Assembly (NCBI GenBank): GCA_002433895.1
Contig: DJJA01000003.1
Location: 107,185-171,184, forward strand
Reading direction: 5' to 3'
Length of the DNA: 64,000 nt
Source of the DNA: Candidatus Gottesmanbacteria bacterium UBA6580
GTDB lineage: Bacteria; Patescibacteriota; Microgenomatia; UBA10105; UBA927
The notes below the pieces were generated by a model, which saw nothing but the letters and a program-made list of their open reading frames with translations, was not told the DNA's origin and ran no database searches. Made by a program: the position numbers and the translations under genes. Of this stretch, positions 11,743 to 44,313 are shown in pieces (the first letter of the stretch is position 1; each line of letters opens with the position of its first letter).

Positions 11743-11747
11743 AAAGG

Positions 11748-14319: not shown

Positions 14320-14323
14320 ATAA

Positions 14324-15652: not shown

Positions 15653-15774
15653 GTACCCTTCATTGTAGAGGGAAAAATTAAGGTGTTCAATAGCACAAAG
15701 CGCATCAGGACCGTGAAAACTCCACTTTTAGAGTTTTCACGAATGAAAAAAATAATCTATGATAAGATAGCCTC

Positions 15775-23872: not shown

Positions 23873-23909
23873 AGTGTAATTATCCGTGATACATTCCGCT
23901 AAAGTCAAT

Positions 23910-24221: not shown

Positions 24222-24288
24222 ACTGCTATTATACGAGTATCAGAAGAGGGGTGACAAGCACACTTTTCTGTTTTATACGCTTCGTGTT

Positions 24289-24618
24289 TTAGTAAGGCTT
24301 CGGGAAATTAATTGAGCCGCCAATGATCTGGACGCCCAAGAAGTTTTGGACGAGTGTCATAATGGCCCAAGCAGCGCCCACAATGATGAGTCCGACGATT
24401 GCATGGGTAATCTTATTCCGCGCTTCTTCCATGCCTGCCTTGTCGCCACCTGAGGTGATCCATTTAATACCTCCCAAAATGAGGTAAAGAAATGCCAAAA
24501 GCGCTGCGATAATAAGCACGGTTCCGACAAGCGCGCTGATAAGCTTGCCAACATCGGTAATTTTAATGGAATCCGGCTGCTTAATATCTAATGCGGCCTG
24601 GGCAAATACTTTGTTCAT
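24289..24618 (-). CDS. T4SS pilin-like protein, paralog 2
   Basis: 109 aa; GGIKWITSGGDKAGMEEARNKITHAIVGLIIVGAAWAI core between two TM helices. Confidence 0.6.
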   Translation of the reverse strand: MNKVFAQAALDIKQPDSIKITDVGKLISALVGTVLIIAALLAFLYLILGGIKWITSGGDKAGMEEARNKITHAIVGLIIVGAAWAIMTLVQNFLGVQIIGGSINFPKPY

Positions 24619-24703
24619 AAATGAATCCTTTCGTCAAATCAATACAGCCTTTATTATACCATCATTTACCATTTTTGCGCAACAAAACAAGATTTGTCAA
24701 TCC

Positions 24704-25048
24704 CTAGTTAGTGATTGTTGGGATAGGGAGATTCGGGAAATCGATACCAAAAAAGTTACCCACAATCATCATGACTGCCCAGGACGCGCCCACCACGACC
24801 AACCCGACGAGCGCGTTGGTAATTTTGTCACGGGCAGACTGAAGCTTTGTTTTGTCGCCGCCACTTGTTACCCAGTCAAATCCACCGAGGAGCATGTAAA
24901 GAAGAGTAGAGATAAACGCCAAGATAAGGAATAAACCAACAAGCGCGCTGATCAACGAACCGATAGCCAGCGGACCCACTTCGTTGCCGCCTTGCCCGAG
25001 ATTACCGGGAAGAACGGGATTGACGATTTGTGCGAGGTGTCTATTCAT
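24704..25048 (-). CDS. T4SS pilin-like protein, paralog 3
   Basis: 114 aa; GGFDWVTSGGDKTKLQSARDKITNALVGLVVVGASWAV core. Confidence 0.6.
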   Translation of the reverse strand: MNRHLAQIVNPVLPGNLGQGGNEVGPLAIGSLISALVGLFLILAFISTLLYMLLGGFDWVTSGGDKTKLQSARDKITNALVGLVVVGASWAVMMIVGNFFGIDFPNLPIPTITN

Positions 25049-25050
25049 GG

Positions 25051-25416
25051 TTATTGGTTCGGACTGAGTAGTTCCATCAATCCGCTCGGATCAGACAGTG
25101 TGAAGTCAAAACCAAAGAATGTGCTGGCAAGCGCAAGTATTGCCCAGCCAGCGACAACCACGATAAGCCCGACAAACGAGTTGGTAAGCCGGTCTTTTGA
25201 GCTTTGGAGCTTTGCTTTATCTCCGCCGGAGTTAATCCAATTAAATCCTCCAATGACAAACTGAAATAGAAACCATATACCGGCAGCGACGGTCATGATG
25301 CCAATAACAGAAGACACAACCTTGGTAATGCCGGTAAGCCCGTCTCCTGGCGCGTTGCCGAAAGGCCCCAAGCCTTCACCGCCAATTTGTCCTAATTCAA
25401 GCGCTAAGTATTTCAT
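25051..25416 (-). CDS. T4SS pilin-like protein, paralog 4
   Basis: GGFNWINSGGDKAKLQSSKDRLTNSFVGLIVVVAGWAI core; start MKYLALELGQ at 25416 is preferred because it abuts the upstream gene stop (25418). Confidence 0.55.
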   Translation of the reverse strand: MKYLALELGQIGGEGLGPFGNAPGDGLTGITKVVSSVIGIMTVAAGIWFLFQFVIGGFNWINSGGDKAKLQSSKDRLTNSFVGLIVVVAGWAILALASTFFGFDFTLSDPSGLMELLSPNQ

Positions 25417-25417
25417 G

Positions 25418-25777
25418 TTATTCGTTTGGCCCGTAAATTGTCGGATTGAGAATAAAATCCGCCCGTCCAAATATGAGATGCCCAAATAGCGAAGCTATGG
25501 CAAATGATCCAACAATGATAACGAGACCTAAGAGTGATTGCCATATGCGGCTCCATGCCTCAGCAAGTTTTTTGCTGTCGCCCGCGGCGTTCATGTAGTT
25601 GTAACCGGCGATGATGAAATTAAAGAGTGCATATATGCCTGCGGCGACAAATGCCAAGCGGAGGATGTTCGTGATAAACATGCCGACCGCACCGGTTTGT
25701 ATGCTGCCATACCCGGTGCCCGACAACGGGCTTTCTATTGATCCGACGATGTCTCCAACTTGCGCCAATTCTTTCAT
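25418..25777 (-). CDS. T4SS pilin-like protein, paralog 5
   Basis: 119 aa; AGYNYMNAAGDSKKLAEAWSRIWQSLLGLVIIVGSFAI core. Confidence 0.55.
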   Translation of the reverse strand: MKELAQVGDIVGSIESPLSGTGYGSIQTGAVGMFITNILRLAFVAAGIYALFNFIIAGYNYMNAAGDSKKLAEAWSRIWQSLLGLVIIVGSFAIASLFGHLIFGRADFILNPTIYGPNE

Positions 25778-25784
25778 ACAATAA

Positions 25785-26132
25785 TTATTGCGGGCTCAGT
25801 ATGTTTAGACCGGTGATGACCTCTATGATTTGTATGATCCAAAATGAACCCAATACGATAAGAAGTCCCGCTATCGCGCCGGTGAGCGCCGTTTTGCCTT
25901 GCTGCGCTTTTTTTGCGTCTCCCGCGGCTACTATAACGTTAAATCCGCCGAAAATCAACAAAATGAAGCTTAAAATACCAGCAAGCATGAAGGCATTTTT
26001 TACGATGGCGGTCACCAGCATGCCGAAGTTGGTCAAATTCGGATTAGGTGCTAATTCCTGTAATGACTGGGCAAACACGCGTTCAAGCATACATTCATAT
26101 TTAAGTGTAAGGAATTTGCCCGGGTCAGTCAA
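25785..26132 (-). CDS. T4SS pilin-like protein, paralog 6 (first gene of the array)
   Basis: GGFNVIVAAGDAKKAQQGKTALTGAIAGLLIVLGSFWI core; an alternative start MLERVF lies at 26090. Confidence 0.55.
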   Translation of the reverse strand: MTDPGKFLTLKYECMLERVFAQSLQELAPNPNLTNFGMLVTAIVKNAFMLAGILSFILLIFGGFNVIVAAGDAKKAQQGKTALTGAIAGLLIVLGSFWIIQIIEVITGLNILSPQ

Positions 26133-26158
26133 TTATGCTAAAGTAACCAGATGTTCCC

Positions 26159-26698
26159 ATGAATGACGCAACGCTTATTGCCCGACTATTCGCCCATGAC
26201 CGGCGGGCTGCCGCAGCGTTTTATCAGCAATACGCCCCACAATTGCGCCGCCACATTCTTGCGAAGGTAAAAACCGAAGAGGACGCCGAAGAAATCCTGC
26301 AGGATACGCTTTTTTCATTTTTGGAAGGGCTTAGGGATTTTCAGCAGAAAAGCAGTGTGCGCACATATCTTTTTTCTATTTGCCACCATAAAATTATTGA
26401 TTACTACCGGAGGAAAAAAATAGGGCATTTTGTATTTTCTCAAATGCCACAGCTTGAGATGCTCGTCTCGCCGTTGCTTGGTCCCGAAGCGGAGCTTGAC
26501 GCAACGCTCGTTAAGGAAAAAATACGGCGGGTGCTGGCGCGCATGTTACCGGTTCACCGGCAGGTGCTGATACTTAAATATCTTGATCATGTGTCTGTTG
26601 AAGACATCGCCGAACGGCTCTCCATAACTTTTAAAAGTGCGGAATCGCGGCTCTTTCGGGCAAGACGCGCGTTCGTTGAATTGTTTGTATCGATATAA
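26159..26698 (+). CDS. RNA polymerase sigma-70 factor, ECF subfamily
   Basis: 179 aa; region 2 (YQQYAPQLRRHILAKV ... LQDTLFSF) and region 4 HTH (LILKYLDHVSVEDIAERLSITFKSAESRLFRARRAF). Confidence 0.75.
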   Translation: MNDATLIARLFAHDRRAAAAFYQQYAPQLRRHILAKVKTEEDAEEILQDTLFSFLEGLRDFQQKSSVRTYLFSICHHKIIDYYRRKKIGHFVFSQMPQLEMLVSPLLGPEAELDATLVKEKIRRVLARMLPVHRQVLILKYLDHVSVEDIAERLSITFKSAESRLFRARRAFVELFVSI

Positions 26699-26704
26699 AT
26701 ACTT

Positions 26705-26935
26705 ATGAGTGACGCAACGTACCAAAAATTTGTAAAGCGATGGGAAGAAGTAACTGATATTCCGCCGCAGGCACTCGGGCCATTTACCGGAATCTACAAA
26801 CAAATCACCAAAAGGTTGAAAGTGATGCCGTGGCCATGGTTTGTCGCGGCGAGTATTGGCTTTGTCCTGGCGTTGTATGTTCTTATCGGCTCTACGATCA
26901 CCATCCTCACAAGTTTACTTCAGGGCGGTTTTTAG
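26705..26935 (+). CDS. putative anti-sigma factor (small single-TM protein)
   Basis: 76 aa, cytoplasmic N-terminus then one TM (WFVAASIGFVLALYVLIGSTITIL); immediately downstream of the ECF sigma gene; its 5' coding sequence (ATGAGTGACGCAACG) is nearly identical to that of the sigma gene (ATGAATGACGCAACG). Confidence 0.35.
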   Translation: MSDATYQKFVKRWEEVTDIPPQALGPFTGIYKQITKRLKVMPWPWFVAASIGFVLALYVLIGSTITILTSLLQGGF

Positions 26936-27009
26936 GATTATTGTGGGTATATCATTCCTGTAATAAGGCAACAGCGCGGGTTTTTCGTGCTTTCGTGCGA
27001 CTAACGTAT

Positions 27010-27633
27010 ATGGACCTTATTGGTATGCTTGTTGTGGACGCGGTTGCATTTGGTCGTACCGTGGCGGGTTTAATTATCCGTCCGTACGAAACATATCGGC
27101 GCATCATTAAGCACGGGAAGGTTGGCGAGCTTGTTTTTATTGCGGCCGCGATGGTGCTGTATTTTAGCTTGGCAAGCCTTGTAAAGGTGGCTTCTTTCCG
27201 GCCGTTTTTGTTAACGCAGCAATTTACATTGCTGTTGTGGGCATCAGTAAGCGGGGCACTGCTTTCCGTCGGATGTATTTATGTAACTAGCCGGCTGCTT
27301 CGTGCGCGCACCACTTTTGCGACAGTGCTGATTGCGTGGTCTTACACGCTCATCCCGACTATTTTGTGGTTCCTCACGACATCACTGTTATACGTGATTT
27401 TACCGCCTCCCCGTACGACAAGCGCGCTTGGTATTACATTTAGCCTGCTGTTTTTGATATTTAGCGCGACCCTGTTATGGTGGAAAATAACTCTTTGTTA
27501 TCTCACGCTTCGGTTTAGTCTCAAACTTAATTTAGCAAAAAGCGTGCTGGTTGCGGTTCTATGCGCCCCCGTTCTTGCATGGTGGGCAGTGAATATGTAC
27601 CGATGGGGAGTATTTAAAGTGCCATTTTTATGA
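27010..27633 (+). CDS. polytopic membrane protein (Yip1-like)
   Basis: ATG at 27010 (MDLIGMLVVDAV); 5 hydrophobic helices; ATGA overlap with the HMG-CoA reductase start. Confidence 0.35.
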   Translation: MDLIGMLVVDAVAFGRTVAGLIIRPYETYRRIIKHGKVGELVFIAAAMVLYFSLASLVKVASFRPFLLTQQFTLLLWASVSGALLSVGCIYVTSRLLRARTTFATVLIAWSYTLIPTILWFLTTSLLYVILPPPRTTSALGITFSLLFLIFSATLLWWKITLCYLTLRFSLKLNLAKSVLVAVLCAPVLAWWAVNMYRWGVFKVPFL

Positions 27634-28790
27634 ACATACGGGATTATCAATCGGTGGCAAAACGGCGCGAGGCGGTGGCAAAAGAGCTATCCGTTCCGCT
27701 CGAACATATTGGTTCGTTTACGCTTGATGAAGTTGTTGCAAGCACGAAACATTGTGAAAACATGATAGGAATTGCCCAGGTGCCTATGGGGCTTGCCGGA
27801 CCGCTCACTCTTTTTACATCAGAGGGAACGCGCGTTACTCATTATGTGCCGCTTGCGACGACAGAAGCGGCGCTTGTGGCATCGGTAAGCCGTGGGTGCA
27901 AGGCGATTACCGCAAGCGGGGGAGCTACCGCAGATAGCCATAGAGTGGGAGCAACCCGCGGACCGGTTTTTAAGGTAAGGAATGTAGCAGAAAACAAAAA
28001 ATTACACGATTATTTGGAGCACAATATGCCGCGCCTCAAACAGGTGGCGGAAAAAACATCCGGTCACCTCACCCTCACAGGGGTGAGTTCCGAAGGGGTG
28101 GGACGTTACCGGTACGTGCGGTTTGTTTACGACACACAGGATGCGATGGGGTTAAATATGGTAACTATTGCGACCGACGCCGCTTCAAAGCTCATCGAAG
28201 AGGAAACCGGGGCCGAGTGTGTTGCGCTTTCAGGCAACTTTTGTGTAGACAAGAAACCGTCCTGGAAAAATTTTGTTGAGAACCGGGGCATTAAAGTATG
28301 GGCTGAAGTAGTGCTTACCGAATCCGTGCTCCGTGATGTGCTCAAGACTGACGCCAAACGCGTATATGAAACATGGCTTGCAAAGTGTATGTTGGGAAGC
28401 GCGATGAGCGGATCAATGGGGTTTAATGCACAATACGCTAATATTATAGCCGCTCTTTTTATTGCGACCGGTCAAGATCCCGCGCATACCGTCGAGGGAA
28501 GCGTGGGTATTACCACCGCAGAGGTGATAAACGGTGCCGACCTTTACGTGAGCATATACCTGCCGGATCTTATGGTTGGCACTATTGGTGGAGGCACTGG
28601 ATTAGCAACGCAGAAAGAGGCATTAGGAATTTTGGGGGTTACCGGGGGGACAGGTGGCGAACATGCGACCCGGTTTGCTGAAATTATCGGCGCCACGGTA
28701 CTCGCGGGAGAAATATCATTATTGAGTTCTTTGGAGCAGGGCACATTGGCGCGTGCGCACAGTAAGCTTGCGCGAGGAAAAATTATATGA
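27630..28790 (+). CDS. hmgA: hydroxymethylglutaryl-CoA reductase (class I-like)
   Basis: DAMGLNMVTIATD; catalytic region GTIGGGTGLATQKEALGILGV; ENRGIKVWAEV; about 386 aa soluble catalytic domain. Confidence 0.9.
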   Translation: MNIRDYQSVAKRREAVAKELSVPLEHIGSFTLDEVVASTKHCENMIGIAQVPMGLAGPLTLFTSEGTRVTHYVPLATTEAALVASVSRGCKAITASGGATADSHRVGATRGPVFKVRNVAENKKLHDYLEHNMPRLKQVAEKTSGHLTLTGVSSEGVGRYRYVRFVYDTQDAMGLNMVTIATDAASKLIEEETGAECVALSGNFCVDKKPSWKNFVENRGIKVWAEVVLTESVLRDVLKTDAKRVYETWLAKCMLGSAMSGSMGFNAQYANIIAALFIATGQDPAHTVEGSVGITTAEVINGADLYVSIYLPDLMVGTIGGGTGLATQKEALGILGVTGGTGGEHATRFAEIIGATVLAGEISLLSSLEQGTLARAHSKLARGKII

Positions 28791-29830
28791 TCGGTATCGT
28801 ATCCTATGGTTCATATATACCGCGTTGCCGTATTCCGATTGCGGATATCGCCCGCGCATGGAAAAAAGATGCTAAAGAAGTGGTCCATTCGTTGGGTCTT
28901 ACGGATAAATCAGTGCCCGCGTTTGATGAAGACGCCGCCACGATCGCAATCGAGTCAGCACTATCGTGTTTCGCGCCATTTCATGGCGATCCAACCGATA
29001 TCGACGTGTTATTTGTCGGGAGCGAGAGTCATCCGTACGCCGTTAATCCAACATCAACCATTGTCGGGGAGTTGTTAGGGTTGGGGAATGCCTATCTTGC
29101 CGCTGATTTGGAGTTTGCCTGTAAGGCGGGAACCGCTGCCATGCAGGCAATCGCCGGCTTAGTGGCTGCGGGGCACGCGAAATACGGACTGGCGATCGGC
29201 GCTGACACCGCACAGGGCAAGCCGCATGATTTTTTGGAGTATACGGCGGCAGCCGGAGGAGCTGCTTTTTTGTTGGGAAGTGACCATGTCGCCGCGCGTC
29301 TTTTGGCAGACACTTCCTATTCATCAGACACGCCTGATTTTTGGCGTAGGGATGGTATGCGCTATCCGTCACATGCAGGCAGATTTACGGGAGAGCCCGC
29401 GTATTACAGTCATGTTATGGGCGCCGCGTCACGATTATTTGAGATGACGGGCACAACCGCAGCCGATTACGATTACTGTATTTTTCATATGCCAAACGGC
29501 AAATTCCCGCGGGAGGTGGCAAAACGCCTGGGATTTTCCCGGGAGCAACTCGAGCCGTCACTGCTTGTTGATCATATTGGAAACGCTTATAGCGCAACGA
29601 CGATGTTGGCACTTTCCGCAGTGCTTGATATTGCCCGTGCTGGCCAAAAAATATTTATGGTTTCGTATGGCTCAGGGGCGGGGAGCGACGCGTTTGTATG
29701 GGAGACAACGAGTGAGCTAAATAAAATACAGCAAGTGAGGGAGAAAAAAACATTACGCGTCTCTGATGCCATTAGCAAAAAAACATACGTTGATTATATC
29801 CAGTTTTTAAAATTAACCCATAAATTATGA
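28787..29830 (+). CDS. hydroxymethylglutaryl-CoA synthase (archaeal-type)
   Basis: MIGIVSYGSYIPRCRIPIADIARAW N-terminus and Cys-containing thiolase-fold active-site region (EFACKAGTAAM); translationally coupled to the flanking genes. Confidence 0.85.
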   Translation: MIGIVSYGSYIPRCRIPIADIARAWKKDAKEVVHSLGLTDKSVPAFDEDAATIAIESALSCFAPFHGDPTDIDVLFVGSESHPYAVNPTSTIVGELLGLGNAYLAADLEFACKAGTAAMQAIAGLVAAGHAKYGLAIGADTAQGKPHDFLEYTAAAGGAAFLLGSDHVAARLLADTSYSSDTPDFWRRDGMRYPSHAGRFTGEPAYYSHVMGAASRLFEMTGTTAADYDYCIFHMPNGKFPREVAKRLGFSREQLEPSLLVDHIGNAYSATTMLALSAVLDIARAGQKIFMVSYGSGAGSDAFVWETTSELNKIQQVREKKTLRVSDAISKKTYVDYIQFLKLTHKL

Positions 29831-30966
29831 AAATTTTTGTAAACGGCGCCGCCACAACGCAGTTCGGTGAATTATGGGGCGTATCGCCCCGGTCACTGGC
29901 ACGCGGGTCTGTCTCGAGTGCGTTAAAAGATGCCCGTATTGAGAGCGCCCAGGTGGAGGCGTTGTTTGTGGGCAACATGCTTTCCGGAATGCTTGGTGGT
30001 CAGGAACATTTGGGAGCGTTTTTTGCCGAGGAACTCGGGTTACCGGTCCCGGCATTTAAAGTAGAAGGAGCTTGTGCATCAGGAGGGTTAGCACTTCATA
30101 ATGCGGTCAACAGTTTGCTTTCAGGCCAATACGCTACTGTGGTGGTATTGGGGATAGAAAAAATGACCGACCATAAACCGGAGGATGTAGCAACGGCGCT
30201 GATGGGAGCGGGGAGTGAGGAGGAGCGAAACGCCGGAGCGACGTTCCCGGGGCTATACGCCATTTTAGCCCGTATGCATATGAATGAATTTGGCACGACC
30301 GAGGAGCAGTTAGCAGCAGTCGCGGTCAAAAATCATTACCACGCAAGCTTAAATCCTAACGCCCAGTTTCATAATCTGCTTACCGTGGAGCAGGTAATGA
30401 GAAGCAGTAGGGTAGCAGATCCACTGAAGTTATTGGATTGCTCTCCAATTTCGGATGGCGCCGCCGCGGTGGTGTTGAGCACAAAAAACATAAAAGGCAG
30501 CGTTGAGGTTGCCGCGTCGGTGGTTGCGACCGACACCCTGGGGCTCGCGCAACGAGCTCACCTAACGCAGCTTACCGCAACGCAGCGCGCAGCAGAAAAA
30601 GCGTACCGCATTGCCGGTCTCACCGCAGGCCAGGTAAGTGTGGCAGAGGTGCATGATTGTTTTACGGTAGCTGAAGTGTTAGCGATGGAAGACTTAGGAT
30701 TTTTTCCGCGGGGGAAAGCGGCAGCGGCGATCGAAAAAGGGGAGACGAGGCTGGGAACGTCAGCGGGTATTGTGGTAAATCCGTCCGGAGGACTGAAGGG
30801 GTGCGGACATCCCGTGGGAGCCACCGGAGTAAAACAGGTTGTCGAGCTTGTGGATCAGCTGCGCGGATCCGCGGGGAAGCGGCAGGTAGAGAACGCGACC
30901 ATCGGACTTGCACATAATGTCGGAGGAAGCGGGGCAACCGCTGTTGTACATATTCTTAAAAAATAA
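29827..30966 (+). CDS. acetyl-CoA acetyltransferase (archaeal-type thiolase)
   Basis: Thiolase-like fold with VEGACASGGLALHNAVNSLLSG active-site Cys region and C-terminal GHPVGATG motif. Confidence 0.85.
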   Translation: MKIFVNGAATTQFGELWGVSPRSLARGSVSSALKDARIESAQVEALFVGNMLSGMLGGQEHLGAFFAEELGLPVPAFKVEGACASGGLALHNAVNSLLSGQYATVVVLGIEKMTDHKPEDVATALMGAGSEEERNAGATFPGLYAILARMHMNEFGTTEEQLAAVAVKNHYHASLNPNAQFHNLLTVEQVMRSSRVADPLKLLDCSPISDGAAAVVLSTKNIKGSVEVAASVVATDTLGLAQRAHLTQLTATQRAAEKAYRIAGLTAGQVSVAEVHDCFTVAEVLAMEDLGFFPRGKAAAAIEKGETRLGTSAGIVVNPSGGLKGCGHPVGATGVKQVVELVDQLRGSAGKRQVENATIGLAHNVGGSGATAVVHILKK

Positions 30967-30967
30967 T

Positions 30968-31270
30968 ATGCAATCACCGGTTAAAATTTGGCGGAACCAA
31001 AAAAATATCGCGAGCCTCGTGGGAAAAACGGGGAAGATATTGTCCTGGACAATTGTCCGTGTGCCGCCCGGGGATTTCACCGACCAGGCGCCGTATCCGG
31101 TGGTACTCGTCGAGTTGGAGAGCGGCAAACGGGTGACGTGTCAGCTGGTTGATTATGATGACGCCCATTTGACGTTTGGGCAGAGGGTGGTGACGATTAT
31201 CCGGCGCGTGACGCACCCTGATCCTGACGGCGTTATTCCCTACGGCATTAAAGCTAAACCATTGGTATGA
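30968..31270 (+). CDS. DUF35-family OB-fold protein (thiolase/HMGS complex partner), lacks Zn-ribbon
   Basis: 100-aa ORF starting 1 nt after the thiolase stop; ILSWTIVRVPP..YPVVLVELESGKRVTCQLVD resembles the OB-fold part of archaeal DUF35 scaffold proteins; no CxxC pairs are present. Confidence 0.6.
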   Translation: MQSPVKIWRNQKNIASLVGKTGKILSWTIVRVPPGDFTDQAPYPVVLVELESGKRVTCQLVDYDDAHLTFGQRVVTIIRRVTHPDPDGVIPYGIKAKPLV

Positions 31271-32217
31271 AAAAAGTAACCGTATCTGCTCCTGGCAAGC
31301 TTCATCTATCGGGCGAGCACGCCGTTGTGTATGGTAAACCGGCGTTAGTTGTTGCTACGTCGTTGCGGTTATACACCACATTAGAAACAGGAGCCGGTGC
31401 CACGTTGCTCCGTAAGATGCGCAAAAACGACCGGTATATCGAAGCCATATCGGCAGCGTTTGAAAAAAAATATGGAGCGTCAATTAAGGATGATGTGGGT
31501 ATCACGATTACTTCTTCAATCCCTATAGGAAGCGGCATGGGGTCATCGTCTGCGCTCGCGGTGTCTTTGTCGGGCGCGCTTTGTGTGTGGCATGGTATGC
31601 CGTGGAACCCTCAAGCCGTAAACGATATTGCGTACCAGGCAGAAAAGACAATATACAAAGGCAGTTCCGGAAGTGATCCTGCTGTCTCTACCCACGGCGG
31701 CATCCTATGGTATAGGAAAGAACTGGAGTTCTTGAAAACCCTGTGGCTGTTGCCCTTTAAAATTCCCAAAACATTTGCGCCGTTTGTGCTTATTAATACC
31801 GGAAGAAAAGAAAGCACGGGCGATTTAGTGGCGCACGTTGGTGAGGGAAAAAAGAGAGATGAGAAGAAATTTGCCGTCCTTTTGGACGCAGTGGAAAAGG
31901 TGACAAAACAAACCGCGCAATCAATTCACGATGAAGACGAGAAGGGTTTCCGCCGGTCAATTTCGGAAAATGAACAGTATCTCGAGGAAATGGGCATCGT
32001 GTCCGCACCTGTCCGGGCGTTTATCCGGGCGGTTGAGGAAGCAGGAGGGGTTGCAAAAATCAGCGGCGCCGGAGGGATACAAACAGGCTCCGGGGTGGTG
32101 GTCGCTATCCACGATACGGCACAGAAAATTATTGCTCTGGCAAAAAAGAGAAAATACGAGACATTCCAGGTGGTATTGGGCGGAGAGGGTGTAAAAATGG
32201 AGCAAGCAACAGCATGA
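31267..32217 (+). CDS. mevalonate kinase (GHMP kinase)
   Basis: N-terminal SAPGKLHLSGEHAVVYGKPALV and ATP-binding PIGSGMGSSSALAVS GHMP motif. Confidence 0.8.
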   Translation: MKKVTVSAPGKLHLSGEHAVVYGKPALVVATSLRLYTTLETGAGATLLRKMRKNDRYIEAISAAFEKKYGASIKDDVGITITSSIPIGSGMGSSSALAVSLSGALCVWHGMPWNPQAVNDIAYQAEKTIYKGSSGSDPAVSTHGGILWYRKELEFLKTLWLLPFKIPKTFAPFVLINTGRKESTGDLVAHVGEGKKRDEKKFAVLLDAVEKVTKQTAQSIHDEDEKGFRRSISENEQYLEEMGIVSAPVRAFIRAVEEAGGVAKISGAGGIQTGSGVVVAIHDTAQKIIALAKKRKYETFQVVLGGEGVKMEQATA

Positions 32218-33134
32218 AAAACGTAACCGTTACAGCGCCCGGCAAGCTGTTGTTGATGGGTGACCACGCAGTGGTATACGGCCGTCCATGCTTGGTCACC
32301 GCAGTAAGTGAGCGTATGAGCGTGTGTGTTGAGCAGTCTCCCGACGGGCAACTTCATTTTGACATGCCGGAACATGTGGATACCCGGTTTGTAAGCAGGG
32401 CGCTCGAGACGGCAAGAGCCCACTGGCGTTTACCCATTTCCGATATCACTATCCGTACGGCGAGCCAGTTTTCCGGCAATGTCGGTTTGGGTTCGTCCGC
32501 CGCCGTAACTGTGGGGATGATTGCCGCATTACGTGAGTATTTGGGGAAAAAAGACAGTCTTAAAACATTGTTCACGCTTTCTTACCGGACTATTTTGGAT
32601 GTTCAGGGAAAGGGATCGGGTTTTGATGCCGCAGCAGCGCTTTTTGGCGGAACGTTATATTTTGTGACCGCAGGAAAAACAATTGAACCATTGTCCGTCA
32701 ATAATATGCGGCTAATTGTCGGGTTTACCGGGGTCAAGGCAGATACCGTGACACTTGTGCGGGAGGTAGAAGAAAAAATGAAAGCGCAACCCGAGCGCGT
32801 TAATAGAATATACGACGCGATAGCAAAGCTTGTCGAAGAAGCGAAACCAAAGATGGTAGAAGGAGATTGGGAACGGGTGGGTAAACTTATGGATTTTAAT
32901 CAGGAATACTTGCGGGATCTGGGAGTAAGCTCTGAAAAACTAGAATCGCTGATCGCGGCTTCCAAAAAAGCGGGCGCATGGGGCGCGAAATTGTCAGGAG
33001 CGGGAGGCGGGGATTGCATGATTGCGCTTGTTTCTGACGATAAGCAGCCGGCAGTACAAGAAGCAATTACACAAGCTGGTGGACAAGTTATCCACATTTC
33101 ACCAAATGCGCAGGGAGCGAGGATTGAGCCATGA
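32214..33134 (+). CDS. second GHMP kinase (phosphomevalonate kinase candidate)
   Basis: TAPGKLLLMGDHAVVYGRPCLV and GLGSSAAVTVGMIAAL GHMP motif; located between mevalonate kinase and the decarboxylase. Confidence 0.6.
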   Translation: MKNVTVTAPGKLLLMGDHAVVYGRPCLVTAVSERMSVCVEQSPDGQLHFDMPEHVDTRFVSRALETARAHWRLPISDITIRTASQFSGNVGLGSSAAVTVGMIAALREYLGKKDSLKTLFTLSYRTILDVQGKGSGFDAAAALFGGTLYFVTAGKTIEPLSVNNMRLIVGFTGVKADTVTLVREVEEKMKAQPERVNRIYDAIAKLVEEAKPKMVEGDWERVGKLMDFNQEYLRDLGVSSEKLESLIAASKKAGAWGAKLSGAGGGDCMIALVSDDKQPAVQEAITQAGGQVIHISPNAQGARIEP

Positions 33135-34111
33135 AACAAACCGCCAAGGCACCGGCCAACATTGCGTTTATCAAATATTGGGGCAAATCTGATGCCGCTC
33201 TCCGGTTGCCGCTTAATGATTCCCTTTCCATGAATATGTCGGGAGCGTATACGGTTACCACCGTAGAGTTTTCCGTTGATTTTCATAAAGATGAGGTCGC
33301 GCTGCTCGGTGGGGAATTTTCGGACCACGAGGTGTTCCGCGTCATCGAAGGACTTAATAGGATCCGCGGGAGGGCAGGGGTAAAGCATTATGCGCGGGTG
33401 GTTACGAAAAACACCTTTCCCAAAGGTGCCGGATCTGCGGCCTCTGCTTCAGGATTTGCCGCGTTAACACTTGCGGGTTTTGCGTCGCTTGGATCACGCA
33501 TTCCGGAAAAAGAGCTCACGATATTTGCCAGGTTGGGAAGTGGGTCGGCATGCCGGAGTATACCGGACGGATTTGTCGTCTGGGAAAAGGGGAATGATAA
33601 CGAAACATCGTATGCACGCTCTCTTTTTCCATCAACGTATTGGGATATCCGTGATGTCCTTGTTATTGTGGATAAACGCATGAAAAAGGTGTCAACGACA
33701 GAGGGCATGGAAACGGTTACGACCAGCCCGCACCTTTCTTCGCGTCTTGCTGCGGTGCCACCACGTATGGCGGCTATACAACAGGCGATGAACGAGAAAA
33801 ATTTTGTCAGATTCGGAGAAATTACCGAGGAAGATTGCCTCGATATGCATCGGGTGATGCAGACACAGAATCCACCGCTTTTTTACTGGAATGAGGCGAC
33901 TGAACGCATCATGTCGGCGGTGAAGAGTTGGAGAAACGCGTCATTGCCCGTATACTTTACCATTGACGCGGGTCCCAACGTGCATTTGCTGTGCGAAGGG
34001 AAAGACGAAGCCCGGCTCCTTGAGATGATAAAGACGCTGCGGGGCGTTGAGGAGGTTATCTTGAATAAGCCGGCGGAAGGGGCGAAGATTATTAGCGAAC
34101 ACTTGTTTTAA
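33131..34111 (+). CDS. mvaD: diphosphomevalonate decarboxylase
   Basis: APANIAFIKYWGK N-terminus, GSGSACRS motif, GHMP fold. Confidence 0.85.
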   Translation: MKQTAKAPANIAFIKYWGKSDAALRLPLNDSLSMNMSGAYTVTTVEFSVDFHKDEVALLGGEFSDHEVFRVIEGLNRIRGRAGVKHYARVVTKNTFPKGAGSAASASGFAALTLAGFASLGSRIPEKELTIFARLGSGSACRSIPDGFVVWEKGNDNETSYARSLFPSTYWDIRDVLVIVDKRMKKVSTTEGMETVTTSPHLSSRLAAVPPRMAAIQQAMNEKNFVRFGEITEEDCLDMHRVMQTQNPPLFYWNEATERIMSAVKSWRNASLPVYFTIDAGPNVHLLCEGKDEARLLEMIKTLRGVEEVILNKPAEGAKIISEHLF

Positions 34112-34117
34112 CATGTT

Positions 34118-34801
34118 ATGAAATCAGGCAACATACCAGCGCATATCGCAATTATTATGGACGGTAACCGCAGGTGGGCACGTGAGCACAATTTGCAGGT
34201 GCTTGCAGGGCACCAGAAGGTTGCTGATGAGGTGTTGGAGCCGCTTGTCGAACATGCCGCGGCGAGAGGAGTGAAATACATTACTTTTTGGGCTTTTTCG
34301 ACTGAAAATTGGATGCGTGAGCCGAAGGAAGTAGAGGGGATTATGTCGATATTCCGTCACACTATCCGAAAACGCTGGCAGCGGTTGCACGAAAAAGGAG
34401 TCCGTGTTCGGGTGATCGGGGATATTTCTAAATTTGCGCCAGATATCAGGAAGGCGTTGGAAGATGTGATGCAGCAAACCGAACACAACACAAAAATTAC
34501 GGCAATATTCGCACTTAACTATGGCGGAAGGGATGAGTTGGTCCGCGCTGTCCGGCAATTTGCCGATTGTGGGCACGTGAGCGAACATGATATTTCTGAC
34601 GCGCTGGATACAAAGGGTATTCCCGATCCCGACCTTATCATCCGCACGAGCGGTGAGCAGCGGCTAAGCGGGTTTTTGCCTTGGCAGGGCGTATATAGCG
34701 AGCTATATTTTCCGTCGTGGCACATGCCGGACTTTACTCCGCAAAAGCTAGACAAAGCATTGGCAGAGTACGGCAAAAGGAAACGAAGATTCGGGAAGTG
34801 A
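34118..34801 (+). CDS. uppS: undecaprenyl diphosphate synthase (cis-prenyltransferase)
   Basis: HIAIIMDGNRRWA, ITFWAFSTENW, and C-terminal RTSGEQRLSGFLPWQ motifs. Confidence 0.9.
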   Translation: MKSGNIPAHIAIIMDGNRRWAREHNLQVLAGHQKVADEVLEPLVEHAAARGVKYITFWAFSTENWMREPKEVEGIMSIFRHTIRKRWQRLHEKGVRVRVIGDISKFAPDIRKALEDVMQQTEHNTKITAIFALNYGGRDELVRAVRQFADCGHVSEHDISDALDTKGIPDPDLIIRTSGEQRLSGFLPWQGVYSELYFPSWHMPDFTPQKLDKALAEYGKRKRRFGK

Positions 34802-34803
34802 TA

Positions 34804-35154
34804 TTACTGGAAGATTTGCCCGATGGAGGTTTCCCACCCCAAAACCACACCGAGGATCTGGACAATCCAAAATGCTCCAAAAATGAGGATAAATCCCACA
34901 ATGGAGTTGGTAAGCGTCATTCTGCCCTGTGCTAATTTTTTTGCATCTCCGGCACTCGTCATGATGGAAAATCCGCTGCTGATGATCATGAGAAGCAATC
35001 CTATTCCTGCTGCCGCAAAAATATAGGGGAGTGCCTGGCCGACGATGACGCCGATTGTGGCGTCGCCAAAATTAAAGTTAACCGGTCCTTCAATGGATAC
35101 ATTGGAGCCACCGTTTCCTTCGATATTAACTACTTGGGCAAGGAGTGTGCGCAT
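34804..35154 (-). CDS. T4SS pilin-like protein, paralog 7
   Basis: 116 aa; SGFSIMTSAGDAKKLAQGRMTLTNSIVGFILIFGAFWIV core shared with the 23.9-26.1 kb array. Confidence 0.55.
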   Translation of the reverse strand: MRTLLAQVVNIEGNGGSNVSIEGPVNFNFGDATIGVIVGQALPYIFAAAGIGLLLMIISSGFSIMTSAGDAKKLAQGRMTLTNSIVGFILIFGAFWIVQILGVVLGWETSIGQIFQ

Positions 35155-35156
35155 AG

Positions 35157-35630
35157 TTAGCCCCTGCTAAATCCTGGTAACTGTAATATATCGACTCCAA
35201 TAAGCCTGAGCAAGAATACGGAAAAAATGATAAGTAATAACCCCGAGATCGCTGCGGTCATGAGCTCCTTTGCTTCATGCAGTTTTTCCGGGTTTCCCGC
35301 GCTCGTAATGCGTTGAAAACCGGAAAATAGAATAAGCAGGAATGCGACACCTCCGCCCAGCCCTGTGCCGAGCCTGATAAATGATGCGATAAACGCGTTT
35401 GGGCTATCACCACCAAAACAACCAATTGCCGTCCACGCACCTCCGCCATCAAAACAGGATTTACATTCGCCGTTTTGTGTGGTCACCGACCGGCACGCCG
35501 CCTCTCCCAGGGACTGATCGACGACTGCTTCAGCATAGGCAACCCTCCCTGTACCGGAAAAAGCCGGGATTACGAGGAGAGATACCAGGCTCATAAAAAA
35601 TAAAAATAGCGATAGTACCGCCCGTTTCAT
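35157..35630 (-). CDS. pilin-like protein with signal peptide and Cys-rich N-terminal extension, paralog 8
   Basis: Start MKRAVLSLFLFFMSLVSLLVIPAFSG at 35630; 4 Cys in CRSVTTQNGECKSCFDGGGAWTAIGCFGG; C-terminal ILFSGFQRITSAGNPEKLHEAKELMTAAISGLLLIIFS pilin core. Confidence 0.5.
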   Translation of the reverse strand: MKRAVLSLFLFFMSLVSLLVIPAFSGTGRVAYAEAVVDQSLGEAACRSVTTQNGECKSCFDGGGAWTAIGCFGGDSPNAFIASFIRLGTGLGGGVAFLLILFSGFQRITSAGNPEKLHEAKELMTAAISGLLLIIFSVFLLRLIGVDILQLPGFSRG

Positions 35631-35712
35631 GCTTCTTAAGTGTAGCAAATTATGCGGTATAAGAAAAGACGAGGGGTAGAGTTTCATGGGTCTGGTACAA
35701 TGGAAAGACCTT

Positions 35713-37476
35713 ATGAAGTTTTCCCGTTTTTTCGTTGGTTTTCTGCTTGTGTTGATCACACTGTCCGTCCCTCTTGCCACGTATGCCCAAAGCTGCGACA
35801 CGTCTTGCGGAGATCCGGACGAGTGTTCGCGGAAAATTGCGAAATGTCAGGAAGAATGGAACGCCATGGAAAAGGCGAAAGCGCCGCATGTATCGGCGCT
35901 TAGTAAAATGGAGGCGGATATTCTCGCGTTCCAAAACCGGATAAAAGGTATAGAGGTGGATTTAGTGAAGAAAGCGTCGGCAATAGTTGAAGCAGAAAAA
36001 GAGCTGGCGTCAGTGCTCGCACTTGCCACGAGGCGTATCGCCGCACTCTACCGGAGAACACAAACGTATAACCCCCTGTTGCCATTTCTGACCTCAACCG
36101 ACGTGGGGGCGGTGCTTCGGGCGTTTACCTATCAGCACGTGGTGATTGATGAGGACAAAAAAAGTATTGCACAGACCGCGGTAGCCATCCGCGATCTAGA
36201 GGCCCGGAAGTCCAGCCTGGAAAAGGAGAGGAATACTCTGGGTTCTCTCAAAGAAGACTTGGACCGCCGCGCGATATCAGTCCGGAAATTAGTGGGCGAC
36301 GCCTCCGCTTACCAGACAAAGCTATCATCAGCTATTGCCGCACTGTCCGCTAAACAGCAATCATTTTTGGCGGCAAAACTTTCCGGTCTTAATCTGCCGT
36401 CCAGCTTAGGCGCCGGGCCGTTGTATTGTACGGACGACCGGAATTTAAACCCCGGATTTTCCCCGGCATTCGCATTTTTTACATATGGCATTCCGCACCG
36501 GGTTGGCATGAACCAGTATGGCGCGTTGGGGAGGGCAAACGATGGGCATGATTATGACAAAATATTGCGGGCATACTTTAACTTTGATGATTATCAGGAC
36601 AAAGGCAATATCACGATAAAAGTAAATAATGGCGGGGGAGTAAATCAGGGATCGGTGATCTGGTCGGGGAGCCTCGAGGAATATGTGAAAAGGATTTATG
36701 AAGTGCCTGCGAGCTGGCCAGCGGAAGCGCTGAAGGCGCAAGCAATAGCTGCCCGATCGTACGCGCTGTATTCTACTGACAATGGCAACAATTCAATATG
36801 TGCCACTCAAAGTTGCCAGGTATTTAAGACCGATCCCAAAGGCGGCGCGTGGGAACAGGCAGTAAATGACACGTCAGGAAAGGTGATGGTGCAGGGAGGC
36901 CAGGCAATTGCGGCATGGTTTTCGTCGACTGATGGAGGCTACACGTTCCAAAACAACGATGTGTGGGGAGGAAGCCACCGGTCGTGGACGAAGCGCACCC
37001 GCGACGTAAATGGGGACATTGCCAGCTTTTCGGATTTACAGAGCAAAGCATACGACCGCAGCTCCCCCTGTTTTTATGCGGCGCAGGGATACCGTAATGA
37101 ATACGGAAAAAGCGCGTGGCTCAAAAGCGAAGAGGTTGCTGATATCGCGAACGTAATTTTGCTGGCGCGTAAGGACAGCGGCACCAAGGAACATCTGTAT
37201 CAGCCGGACAAGCCTAATCCTGCGGGTACTGACACGTGGGATAGGGATAGGGTAAAGCAGGAGCTGAAGAACCGTGGAGGAACACCGTTTAGTTCTGTAT
37301 CGAGCGTGACCGTTTCAGGTGTTGATTGGGGGCTTGGGAGAACCACCGGTATCACCATAAGCGGAGACGCAGGAACGATGACATTTGAAGGCGTTGAATT
37401 TAAAGACTTTTTTAATCTTCGGGCGCCGGCAAACATCCAGATTGTCGGTCCATTGTTTAACATCGAGAAGAAGTAG
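35713..37476 (+). CDS. SpoIID/LytB-domain protein with N-terminal signal peptide and coiled-coil region
   Basis: AIAARSYALYSTDNGNNSICATQSCQVFK ... AWFSSTDGGYTFQNNDVWGG is the SpoIID/LytB amidase-enhancer signature; start MKFSRFFVGFLLVLITLSVPLATYAQS. Confidence 0.7.
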   Translation: MKFSRFFVGFLLVLITLSVPLATYAQSCDTSCGDPDECSRKIAKCQEEWNAMEKAKAPHVSALSKMEADILAFQNRIKGIEVDLVKKASAIVEAEKELASVLALATRRIAALYRRTQTYNPLLPFLTSTDVGAVLRAFTYQHVVIDEDKKSIAQTAVAIRDLEARKSSLEKERNTLGSLKEDLDRRAISVRKLVGDASAYQTKLSSAIAALSAKQQSFLAAKLSGLNLPSSLGAGPLYCTDDRNLNPGFSPAFAFFTYGIPHRVGMNQYGALGRANDGHDYDKILRAYFNFDDYQDKGNITIKVNNGGGVNQGSVIWSGSLEEYVKRIYEVPASWPAEALKAQAIAARSYALYSTDNGNNSICATQSCQVFKTDPKGGAWEQAVNDTSGKVMVQGGQAIAAWFSSTDGGYTFQNNDVWGGSHRSWTKRTRDVNGDIASFSDLQSKAYDRSSPCFYAAQGYRNEYGKSAWLKSEEVADIANVILLARKDSGTKEHLYQPDKPNPAGTDTWDRDRVKQELKNRGGTPFSSVSSVTVSGVDWGLGRTTGITISGDAGTMTFEGVEFKDFFNLRAPANIQIVGPLFNIEKK

Positions 37477-44259: not shown

Positions 44260-44313
44260 ACTGCGTCCTAACCAGAACGCAAATTATGAATAGGCCCTCT
44301 TTTTTATGTGTTG

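Follow-up and report, generated by a model that had tools for sequence, protein, structure and literature searches.

The mevalonate (MVA) gene set of CPR bacteria and its synteny with cis-IPPS were described by Hoshino and Gaucher in 2018 (Mol Biol Evol; PMC6107057). The deep origin of CPR MVA genes is the subject of a published and ongoing debate (PMC6107057 versus PMC11052028), and the literature that we searched held no experiment on any CPR MVA enzyme. An archaeal complex of thiolase, HMG-CoA synthase (HMGS) and a DUF35 protein (6ESQ) was also published in 2018 and is cited by PMC12960953 and PMC6392133. A zinc ribbon is present in the structurally characterised thiolase-complex DUF35 proteins that these accounts describe, namely those of 6ESQ, PhlB and MucC. 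The bacterial systems PhlABC, MucABC, BbsAB and Ltp2-ChsH2 have HMGS-like subunits without the catalytic Glu/Cys/His/Asn and thiolase-like subunits without HDxF (PMC12960953).

The locus described here lies in a 64-kb stretch of DNA, referred to as the window. We conclude, with a probability of about 0.8, that it is the lineage-typical MVA operon of Ca. Gottesmanbacteria (Microgenomates, CPR/Patescibacteria), inherited vertically within that clade of ultra-small bacteria known without cultivation. The eight genes that a first-pass annotation had placed between positions 27630 and 34801 were all recovered there, with their families, by Pfam and NCBIfam profiles (Table 1). Successive genes are joined, as had been described, by ATGA overlaps or short gaps: overlaps occur at six junctions (27630, 28787, 29827, 31267, 32214 and 33131), and gaps of 1 nt and 6 nt separate thiolase from DUF35 and decarboxylase from uppS, respectively. 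The tightly coupled run begins one gene earlier than proposed, with a gene for a Yip1-domain protein (202 aa from the ATG at 27025 in public gene calls) whose stop codon overlaps the HMG-CoA reductase (HMGR) start in the ATGA at 27630. The run ends with uppS, whose stop codon lies 3 nt from the beginning of a convergent gene. Across the clade, a −4 overlap is the type of junction met most often. Stop and start codons that overlap in this way imply that the genes are co-transcribed and are probably also translationally coupled. Promoter and terminator scans at the locus gave results at chance level only. Directly upstream of the run, on the same strand, lies an ECF sigma factor gene, whose position makes it a possible regulator of the operon; the 76-aa ORF that follows has no family match and would be anti-sigma-like by position. 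The ORFs scanned in the 64 kb yielded no IDI, IDI-2, IPK or trans-prenyltransferase, in agreement with the earlier statement that IPP isomerase and a trans-prenyltransferase are absent from the window.

Table 1. Genes of the MVA locus and its upstream region (window coordinates).
Feature	Coordinates	Strand	Basis
ECF-type sigma factor	26159..26698	+	Pfam Sigma70_r2 and r4_2
76-aa ORF	26705..26935	+	hydrophobic segment at C-terminus
Yip1-domain polytopic membrane protein	27025..27633	+	PF04893, 32 bits, above cut-off
HMG-CoA reductase (HMGR), class I, NADPH type	27630..28790	+	PF00368, TIGR00533
HMG-CoA synthase (HMGS), archaeal type	28787..29830	+	TIGR00748
Acetoacetyl-CoA thiolase, archaeal (SCP-x-like) type	29827..30966	+	NF004720
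Short DUF35 protein, 100 aa	30968..31270	+	PF01796
GHMP kinase 1, divergent mevalonate-kinase paralogue	31267..32217	+	TIGR00549
GHMP kinase 2, mevalonate kinase	32214..33134	+	TIGR00549
Mevalonate 5-diphosphate decarboxylase (probable)	33131..34111	+	TIGR01240
uppS, cis-prenyltransferase (undecaprenyl-diphosphate synthase family)	34118..34801	+	PF01255, TIGR00055

The upper-pathway enzymes are readily classified. HMGR matches PF00368 with 381 bits and scores 410 bits against TIGR00533 (NADPH, class I) versus 47 bits against TIGR00532 (class II), and among solved structures 6HR7 comes nearest to it (362 bits). Residues E43, D207, K208 and H377, which we take to be the catalytic set of class I HMGR, are conserved in 68/68 orthologues. 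HMGS exceeds the cut-off of the archaeal model TIGR00748 (438 bits, versus 117 bits for the bacterial model TIGR01835) and keeps E80, C112 and H234 in all 74 orthologues and N266 in 73 of them. The thiolase is above the cut-off of NF004720 (463 bits) and scores 435 bits with NF053570 (M. thermolithotrophicus type) and 95 bits with TIGR01930 (thiolase II); C83, H328 and the HDCF motif at 276-279 are invariant (76/76 orthologues). Each member of the HMGS/thiolase/DUF35 trio finds its nearest solved relative in a different chain of 6ESQ, the M. thermolithotrophicus complex: HMGS in chain I (371 bits), thiolase in chain A (307 bits) and DUF35, across its OB fold, in chain E (53 bits). This upholds the proposal that the trio is of archaeal type. 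At the far end of the operon, uppS matches PF01255 (247 bits) and TIGR00055 (221 bits) with its DGNRRW and ENW motifs conserved.

The DUF35 assignment passes the profile search (PF01796, 59 bits), and the protein is truncated in the manner first described. It keeps the N-terminal helix with its motif and the OB fold, and the Cys4 zinc ribbon is deleted, leaving a clean 32-residue gap in the alignment exactly where long forms have CxxC...CxxC. A start at the TTG of the longest ORF was rejected; the ATG at 30968 fits the homologues, which are 99-100 aa long and start MxSPVKIWRNQK. An AF2 model (pLDDT 81.6) shows a helix at 4-17 plus the OB fold, and Foldseek ranks 6ESQ DUF35 chains on top, with structures of bacterial DUF35 thiolase-like complexes also matching. 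Ribbon-bearing DUF35 proteins occur in two related loci of the same gene order (L087 and L095). The ribbon-less form is clade-wide and appears to be undescribed so far, and it is a modest variant. Since the ribbon is missing, complex formation by this DUF35 is an assumption, and the protein is best regarded as a putative scaffold of a thiolase/HMGS complex.

The two kinases stand in the reverse of the order first given, in which mevalonate kinase (MVK) preceded another GHMP kinase. Kinase 2 scores 206 bits with TIGR00549 and 157 bits with M. mazei MVK 6MDE, versus 165 bits (cut-off 163) and 88 bits for kinase 1; judged by these scores, kinase 2 is the real MVK. Kinase 1 forms a separate orthologous group with 26% identity to kinase 2 and is far nearer to MVKs than to any characterised phosphomevalonate kinase (PMK): PMK models stay far under their cut-offs, and a profile of 37 orthologues scores 132 bits with MVKs and 34 bits with S. 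pneumoniae PMK. Kinase 1 is thus an MVK paralogue, and pathway logic gives it a putative role as phosphomevalonate kinase.

For the decarboxylase, the family named in the first pass is retained (TIGR01240, 265 bits, above cut-off), but the substrate is less straightforward. By comparison with Table 4 of PMC3857490 and with the sequences of 6N0X and 6N0Z, K19 and M193 are in the MDD state, whereas R25 and T189 match MPDs. The window enzyme has D279; Asn stands in place of the decarboxylase Asp in 15 of 66 relatives but not in the window. The best solved relative is the Chloroflexi phosphomevalonate decarboxylase of A. thermophila (6N0X and 6N0Z, 270 and 275 bits, versus 204 bits for S. aureus MDD, the best MDD), and 6N0X is that enzyme bound to MVA5P (PMC9254496). 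The lower half might accordingly follow the Chloroflexi/haloarchaeal route, in which MVK yields MVAP, the decarboxylase converts it to isopentenyl phosphate and a kinase forms IPP, the last enzyme being either kinase 1, in the role of an isopentenyl-phosphate kinase of GHMP type, or an IPK whose gene lies elsewhere. We consider this unlikely, although several features besides the closest match fit it: Arg25 and Thr189 conform to the MPD pattern, kinase 1 is not recognisable as a PMK, His occupies position 193 in 18/66 orthologues as in wild-type AthPMD, and IPK homologues have been noted in CPR (PMC6107057). However, Lys19 is conserved in MDDs, Chloroflexi MPDs having Leu or Asn there, and 19 and 193 are the very sites that distinguish variant 6N0Z from wild-type 6N0X; the window enzyme, with Met193, scores higher against the variant. 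In addition, Ser137 and Ser139 follow the MDD pattern, an IPK of the amino-acid kinase family was neither found in the window nor noted in related loci, and a second phosphate-adding kinase is kept between MVK and decarboxylase, as the classical route needs. From its residues, the decarboxylase probably acts on mevalonate 5-diphosphate, with activity on the monophosphate also conceivable.

We compared the locus with 80 GTDB loci encoding the short DUF35, and with 86 loci in a wider count. The order Yip1-HMGR-HMGS-THL-DUF35-GHMP1-GHMP2-decarboxylase-uppS is found in 60/86 loci (58 of the 80 from GTDB), and the 22 GTDB loci without the full array are mostly cut by contig ends. The Yip1 gene precedes HMGR in 66 of the 80, an ECF sigma homologue occupies the same position in 68, the 76-aa ORF follows the sigma gene in 68, and the flanks are collinear across the clade as well. 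These 80 loci are labelled Gottesmanbacteria, Microgenomates, Woesebacteria, Patescibacteria or 'uncultured Gammaproteobacteria', the last being taken to be binning-project placeholders. The nearest genome is Ca. Gottesmanbacteria UBA5942 (83-93% amino-acid identity), and the window itself bears marks of a CPR bacterial host (tmRNA, SmpB, DUF5657 and VirB2-like pilin arrays). In NJ trees, the window HMGS and thiolase fall inside the Gottesmanbacteria clade, which excludes archaea and the ribbon-bearing relatives. The GC content of the operon (0.51; GC3 0.53) is within about 1 s.d. of that of 27 other window genes (0.48±0.02; GC3 0.50±0.04). The array in 58/80 loci, the nested trees and the native composition therefore identify this operon as the CPR-type MVA cluster of PMC6107057.

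These observations do not support the earlier suggestion, as worded, that an archaeal-type trio in a bacterial chromosome points to horizontal acquisition. That the window genome recently acquired an archaeal operon would accord with upper-pathway enzymes that score far higher on archaeal than on bacterial models and whose nearest solved relatives come from a methanogen. We nonetheless hold such an event to be extremely improbable. The identical nine-gene array and flanks occur in at least 58 species-level relatives, with identities falling together gene by gene; the window is nested in the clade in both trees, and its base composition is native. Identity to M. thermolithotrophicus (51% for HMGS, 45% for thiolase) is not above that to distant Gottesmanbacteria, and the one archaeal locus inspected (L090) has only HMGS-THL-DUF35 contiguous, with the lower genes and uppS arranged otherwise. 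The operon thus uses archaeal-type enzymes that came down within the lineage and were not recently imported, which makes it largely ordinary.

If the genes did pass from archaea to bacteria, they would have done so long ago, no later than the base of the lineage. Transfer of archaeal MVA genes into the CPR/Microgenomates ancestor, followed by vertical descent, bears only on the deep origin and does not conflict with vertical inheritance within the clade; we put it at somewhat less than even odds. PMC11052028 argues that the MVA genes of bacteria, CPR included, came horizontally from archaea; the HMGS-THL-DUF35 order recurs in archaeal locus L090, and L087 and L095 encode DUF35 proteins that bear a ribbon. 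Conversely, PMC6107057 traces the genes back to the CPR ancestor and possibly further, CPR sequences making up a clade of their own for most enzymes, and the small NJ trees presented here give no root for this question. The trio is also found in a flagellated non-CPR bacterium (L091) and is therefore not confined to archaea.

The small genes bracketing the operon are pilin genes on both sides, as first noted, but they encode VirB2-like T4SS pilins (PF18895) and not type IV pilins. The accompanying proposal, that the operon may be needed for the lipid carrier of the surface machinery, would accord with this adjacency, which is kept in 52-70/80 loci, and with T4SS genes 10-18 kb upstream. Such a functional tie, for example through a dedicated carrier, appears quite improbable. 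The entire 20-kb neighbourhood is collinear in the clade, so that pilin adjacency carries no specific signal, and the pilin genes lie on the opposite strand. A polyprenyl-phosphate carrier is required for peptidoglycan and glycan synthesis anyway. Moreover, CPR in general have tandem arrays of VirB2-like pilin genes, and T4SS genes close to the origin (10.1101/2025.01.22.634366).

Read as a lineage-typical MVA operon, the locus suggests the following pathway. Thiolase and HMGS, as assigned from sequence, would convert three acetyl-CoA to HMG-CoA, probably while linked through the short DUF35 in a complex like archaeal 6ESQ, and class I HMGR would form mevalonate. Kinase 2 is predicted to phosphorylate mevalonate, and kinase 1 would most likely add the second phosphate. 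The decarboxylase would then give IPP, its family being clear and its substrate suggested by two MDD-type residues, and uppS, a clear family member with a predicted product, would use IPP for a polyprenyl-phosphate lipid carrier for envelope synthesis. IPP isomerase and the trans-prenyltransferase that would make the allylic primer must come from genes elsewhere or from another source.

Among known systems, PhlABC, MucABC, BbsAB and Ltp2-ChsH2 share the three-protein architecture with DUF35, but the window HMGS and thiolase keep the catalytic residues that those systems lack. Because these residues are all kept within a complete MVA operon, repurposing of the trio for other chemistry is unlikely. 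In agreement with the archaeal 6ESQ system, the three genes are adjacent, in the order of archaeal locus L090, and the HMGS Glu/Cys/His/Asn and thiolase Cys/His/HDxF sets are kept. The differences are that the window host is a bacterium, the trio lies inside a full pathway operon and the DUF35 is without the 32-residue Cys4 zinc ribbon. The Anaerolinea thermophila/Roseiflexus route (PMC3857490; 6N0X) offers the decarboxylase closest overall, and the window enzyme matches it in having Arg at site 'Ile27' and Thr at site 'Ser192', yet K19 and M193, a second kinase in the operon and the lack of an IPK among the window ORFs scanned set the locus apart. Compared with the CPR cluster of PMC6107057, which is described without DUF35 (0 occurrences), a Yip1 gene or an ECF sigma gene, and with IDI-I universal in CPR, the window has no IDI-I, its 'PMVK' is an MVK paralogue and its decarboxylase is nearest to Chloroflexi PMD. 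Otherwise the two agree in an archaeal-type AACT replacing thiolase II, HMGS, class I HMGR, MVK, a 'PMVK' GHMP kinase and DPMD, and in the cis-prenyltransferase synteny that, according to that paper, typifies CPR and is found especially often in Microgenomates.

The eight mevalonate (MVA) and uppS genes recognized in the first-pass annotation occupy 27630-34801 on the plus strand, and every family assignment is borne out by profile scores (see table). Their tight coupling is also evident, with six ATGA overlaps, one 1-nt gap and one 6-nt gap. The coupled run opens one gene before HMGR, at a Yip1 gene, rather than at the HMGR start noted earlier. At the other end, uppS begins 6 nt past the decarboxylase gene, and the two are neighbors in 63 related loci. 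With its start at ATG 30968, the DUF35 gene encodes a 100-aa protein, matching homologues of 99-100 aa that have the common N-terminus MxSPVKIWRNQK. Since they lie across conserved genes, antisense ORFs in the operon (e.g. 31926-32423, 32900-33388 and 34124-34588, minus strand) were taken to be spurious. A promoter and terminator scan of 25400-36000 gave the same counts as expected from shuffled sequence, and an Rfam scan found no RNA family within the operon or adjoining it.

Features of the mevalonate operon and its immediate flanks (window coordinates)
Feature	Position	Strand	Remarks
VirB2-like T4SS pilin genes, ~6 paralogues in tandem (PF18895)	23910-26132	-	upstream of operon
ECF-type sigma factor	26159-26698	+	directly 5' of Yip1 region
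76-aa ORF, hydrophobic C-terminus	26705-26935	+	adjoins ECF sigma gene, same strand
Yip1-domain membrane protein	27025-27633	+	ATGA overlap with HMGR start
HMG-CoA reductase (HMGR), class I (NADPH)	27630-28790	+	410 bits vs 47 for class II
HMG-CoA synthase (HMGS), archaeal type	28787-29830	+	TIGR00748 438 bits vs bacterial model 117
Thiolase, archaeal/SCP-x type	29827-30966	+	NF004720 463, NF053570 435; thiolase II 95 bits
DUF35 OB-fold protein	30968-31270	+	PF01796 59 bits
GHMP kinase 1	31267-32217	+	TIGR00549 165 bits (cut-off 163)
GHMP kinase 2, predicted mevalonate kinase	32214-33134	+	TIGR00549 206 bits
Decarboxylase, MDD family	33131-34111	+	TIGR01240 265 bits
uppS, cis-prenyltransferase	34118-34801	+	PF01255 247 bits
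Two further pilin genes (PF18895)	34804-35801	-	downstream of operon

The description of HMGS, thiolase and DUF35 as an archaeal-type trio is upheld by their closest solved relatives, which are the three chains of 6ESQ/6ET9 (371, 307 and 53 bits, respectively), 6ESQ being the Methanothermococcus thermolithotrophicus complex. As compared with the 6ESQ-type module, the window carries HMGS, an SCP-x-type thiolase and DUF35 adjacent at 28787-31270, in that order, which is common to the window and the archaeal comparison locus L090. The HMGS residues E80, C112, H234 and N266 are present and are kept in 73-74 of 74 orthologues, and thiolase C83, H328 and the HDCF motif at 276-279 are invariant (76/76 orthologues). 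The HMGS Glu-Cys-His-Asn set is lost in the repurposed PhlA/MucA, and PhlABC and MucABC lack these HMGS/thiolase catalytic residues (PMC12960953). In contrast, both window enzymes keep what those systems have lost, and thus bona fide HMG-CoA synthesis by the trio is the sensible reading of these conserved residues. A Friedel-Crafts-type repurposing of the trio was weighed and rejected, since every catalytic residue missing from PhlA/MucA and PhlC/MucB is kept here.

Profile HMM searches support the assignment of the fourth operon protein to DUF35 (PF01796), and the lack of a Zn-ribbon, also noted at first pass, appears as a clean 32-residue gap at the ribbon position. Characterized DUF35 proteins combine a helical segment at the N-terminus with a rubredoxin-like Cys4 ribbon and an OB fold (PMC6392133, PMC12960953). 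Unlike the 6ESQ-type DUF35, the window protein keeps the helix motif (SPxKIWRxQK) and OB fold without the Cys4 ribbon, and in this loss it differs from every characterized member described in PMC6392133 and PMC12960953. An AF2 model (pLDDT 81.6) has a helix at residues 4-17 and an OB fold, and the top Foldseek matches to this model are the 6ESQ DUF35 chains. The short form makes up a large family: 514 homologues were found, the best 120 of which lack CxxC, and 117 of the 150 top representatives from a 50%-identity clustered library are both short and Cys-free. Because ribbon-bearing DUF35 proteins occur in related loci collected for comparison, among them L087 (with a CPR-like N-terminus and the same gene order) and L095, the zinc ribbon was probably lost within this radiation. 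L087:708-4502 (GC 0.37) encodes its 135-aa DUF35 in the order thiolase-DUF35-kinase 1-kinase 2-decarboxylase. Our literature searches returned no paper pairing DUF35 with CPR terms. Whether the DUF35 zinc ribbon is dispensable for the thiolase/HMGS channelling complex is a question that can be tested with this operon.

The host carries bacterial markers in the window (tmRNA beside smpB; dnaA, dnaN, dnaG and rpoD) together with marks of the CPR (DUF5657 and VirB2-like pilin arrays), and its nearest genomes are Ca. Gottesmanbacteria. A scan for the short DUF35 in one genome per GTDB species yielded 80 loci, which are labelled Gottesmanbacteria, Microgenomates, Woesebacteria or Patescibacteria, or else ‘uncultured Gammaproteobacteria’, a binning-project title that we take as a placeholder. 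As judged by tblastn with nine proteins, the order Yip1-HMGR-HMGS-thiolase-DUF35-kinase 1-kinase 2-decarboxylase-uppS is found in 60 of all 86 loci, including 58 of the 80 from GTDB, with departures mostly at contig ends, and a -4 overlap is the most frequent junction clade-wide. The flanks are likewise collinear in relatives, comprising the tandem VirB2-like pilin array, sigma gene and 76-aa ORF upstream, and two further pilin-like genes, SpoIID, a 211-aa protein and DUF5657 downstream; each flank gene is present in 36-70 of the 80 loci. The nearest relative, Ca. Gottesmanbacteria UBA5942, shows 83-93% amino-acid identity over the operon, and 17 public contigs, including one of >1 Mb, encode an identical HMGS protein. 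Local variants are also seen: uppS directly follows DUF35 in L039:8001-9173 and L043:8001-8737, where both kinases and the decarboxylase are missing from the locus, and an ~840-nt insert with a SAM-methyltransferase-like ORF separates kinases 1 and 2 in L009:9236-10072.

Horizontal acquisition by this genome, as proposed at first pass, is contradicted by these data. In neighbor-joining (NJ) trees of HMGS and thiolase, the window is nested within the Gottesmanbacteria clade. Outside the clade fall L095 and L089, both related loci with a ribbon-bearing DUF35, and then archaeal L090 (its DUF35 matches a Thermofilum sp. protein at NCBI exactly), M. thermolithotrophicus and L091 from a flagellated bacterium. 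Operon GC and GC3 lie within ~1 s.d. of 27 other window genes. Since clade-wide gene order, collinear flanks, NJ nesting and native composition all oppose recent transfer, the cluster is native to the lineage. An archaeal source for the MVA genes of the CPR ancestor is the subject of a published dispute (PMC6107057 versus PMC11052028). A bacterial operon of archaeal appearance that suggests horizontal transfer is ordinary for Microgenomates, as already published, and calls for no particular explanation. L091:2777-5402 encodes HMGS, thiolase and a zinc-ribbon DUF35 on a contig that also has flagellar FliJ, FliL and FliM, which marks it as coming from a non-CPR bacterium; hence the archaeal-type trio extends beyond archaea and the CPR.

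Two GHMP kinases are present as first described, but the order in which mevalonate kinase (MVK) precedes the second kinase does not hold, as kinase 2 (32214-33134) is the predicted MVK. The M. mazei MVK structure scores 157 bits to kinase 2 and 88 bits to kinase 1, and the MVK model TIGR00549 likewise scores kinase 2 higher, with kinase 1 just over the cut-off. Kinase 1 also falls far under the cut-offs of two phosphomevalonate kinase (PMK) models (61 and 43 bits, against 166 and 500). Because a profile built from 37 kinase 1 orthologues favors MVKs (132 bits) over S. pneumoniae PMK (34 bits), kinase 1 is best described by its profile matches as an MVK paralogue, and pathway logic and position suggest a putative role as PMK. 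The two kinases form distinct orthologous groups and share 26% identity. Identity among kinase 1 orthologues is bimodal (61-67% versus 35-44%). Replacement of the gene, giving two types, was rejected in favor of one orthologous group with fast-evolving subgroups, as clustering keeps all members together and apart from kinase 2. Kinase 1 evolves far faster than its neighbors, being 35-44% identical where HMGS and thiolase are 70-84% identical, and at 45% identity its orthologues fall into three subgroups (10, 53 and 12 members). The division of roles among CPR GHMP paralogues is open to direct test.

Among proteins of solved structure, the one closest to the decarboxylase is the phosphomevalonate decarboxylase (PMD) of Anaerolinea thermophila (6N0X, 270 bits; 6N0Z, 275 bits), compared with 204 bits for the S. 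aureus mevalonate diphosphate decarboxylase (MDD). The 6N0X entry is the A. thermophila enzyme with MVA5P bound (PMC9254496). Two substitutions distinguish the deposited pair of A. thermophila sequences (Asn to Lys in YWGN and His to Met in TQGH), and at these sites K19 and M193 of the window enzyme are the MDD-shared states. Diagnostic MDD residues for diphosphate binding are Tyr, Lys, Ser, Ser and Ser (PMC3857490, Table 4); by this comparison Tyr16, Lys19, Ser137 and Ser139 are MDD-like, whereas Arg25, and Thr189 in place of Ser, are MPD-like. We consider a classical route, from MVK through a PMK-like kinase to MDD, likelier than a PMD route, with a probability of roughly two in three. A PMD route, equivalent to the Chloroflexi/haloarchaeal lower pathway, would be in keeping with the A. 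thermophila match and the two MPD-like residues. However, the window enzyme differs from Chloroflexi/haloarchaeal PMD in keeping K19 rather than Leu or Asn, and in contrast to the MVK-PMD-IPK pathway of those organisms, no AA_kinase-family protein, and no isopentenyl-phosphate kinase (IPK), was detected among the window ORFs scanned, and we regard this route as improbable. It is also conceivable, albeit unlikely, that Gottesmanbacteria have a pathway distinct in structure and enzymes, in which the ribbon-less DUF35, with its helix and OB fold retained, holds together a minimal thiolase/HMGS complex, and in which an MVK paralogue rather than a canonical PMK supplies the second phosphate. The substrate of this paralogue could be mevalonate 5-phosphate or, following a PMD-like decarboxylation, isopentenyl phosphate, and such a pathway, if true, would be intermediate between the classical and Chloroflexi-type routes. 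The operon also allows the CPR decarboxylase to be tested as an MDD-like ancestor of Chloroflexi PMDs. Asn takes the place of the catalytic Asp (window D279) in some 15 of the 66 decarboxylase orthologues, all of them from distant relatives (L046, L058, L064, L065 and L072-L086), and in most of these window position 193 is Gln as well, raising the question whether they still decarboxylate.

The reported absence of IPP isomerase (IDI) and trans-prenyltransferase from the window was corroborated, as no IDI-1, IDI-2 or trans-prenyltransferase was found among the scanned ORFs and a tblastn search of the window with a CPR IDI gave no match at E≤10. The sole NUDIX protein in the window (54976-55446) was rejected as an IDI because it is MutT/NUDIX-hydrolase-like and matches no IDI model. 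A canonical-IDI scan of JGI metagenomes, using two short peptide patterns only, gave 77 loci, none from sample 3300005669, which includes a 385-kb contig of the window's organism. In 24 of the 80 relatives (L011, L012, L015, L031, L055 and 19 others; e.g. L012:9261-10634), the mevalonate kinase reading frame continues, uninterrupted by a stop codon, into a ~140-aa NUDIX domain before the decarboxylase, a fusion missing in the window and its nearest relatives. The fused domain is 29-38% identical to CPR IDI. With a canonical Nudix-hydrolase box but without the IDI catalytic Cys, this domain may act as a hydrolase and not as an isomerase. L087 has a canonical IDI-1-like gene (WSNTACSHP, EHEHD) at the position of uppS in the window.

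The operon is indeed flanked by pilin genes, kept in 52-70 of the 80 related loci, but these are not type IV pilins, a class recognized by its class III signal peptide or prepilin N-terminal domain: the small proteins score 25-29 bits with PF18895 (T4SS_pilin, VirB2-like), and none matches a family of type IV pilins. The proposed tie between the operon and surface or pilin machinery gains no specific evidence from this adjacency, which is uninformative on function because the entire neighborhood is collinear in the clade. The arrays correspond to the ‘VirB2 arrays’ reported in Microgenomates and Saccharibacteria. Both VirB2-like genes in tandem and T4SS genes near the origin are described as general CPR features, particularly of Microgenomates (10.1101/2025.01.22.634366). 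Near dnaA, 10-18 kb 5' of the operon, are genes for a VirB4/TraG-like ATPase, a PrgI-like protein, a VirD4-like coupling protein and an M23 peptidase. These T4SS-like genes (9583-17961) are within 10 kb of dnaA/dnaN, as in the origin-proximal CPR arrangement. Since dnaA and dnaN (5865-8571) coincide with the cumulative GC-skew minimum (~7-8 kb), the replication origin is probably near 7-8 kb. Two large ORFs, at 18610-22221 (1203 aa) and 22265-23908 (547 aa), have no Pfam match, and in 18 related loci the latter is conserved beside the pilin array. The window also encodes two sulfatases and an arylsulfotransferase-family protein (42952-45981 and 61976-63466), unexpectedly much sulfate-ester metabolism for a ~1.2-Mb genome.

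The initial view of this operon is thus partly supported, in that the module is archaeal-type, yet was not imported horizontally by this genome. The ribbon-less DUF35, the MVK-paralogue ‘PMK’ and the PMD-like decarboxylase with MDD residues are modest, testable refinements rather than surprises, as is the conserved Yip1 and ECF-sigma head of the operon. The CPR-type MVA cluster has been described as having an archaeal AACT for thiolase II, class I HMGR, synteny with cis-prenyltransferase, and IDI-I (PMC6107057). The 64-kb window differs in having no IDI-I. In other respects the likeness is close: the host is likewise a member of the CPR/Patescibacteria, an archaeal-type thiolase and class I HMGR are likewise present, and the MVA genes are syntenic with a cis-prenyltransferase gene, uppS.
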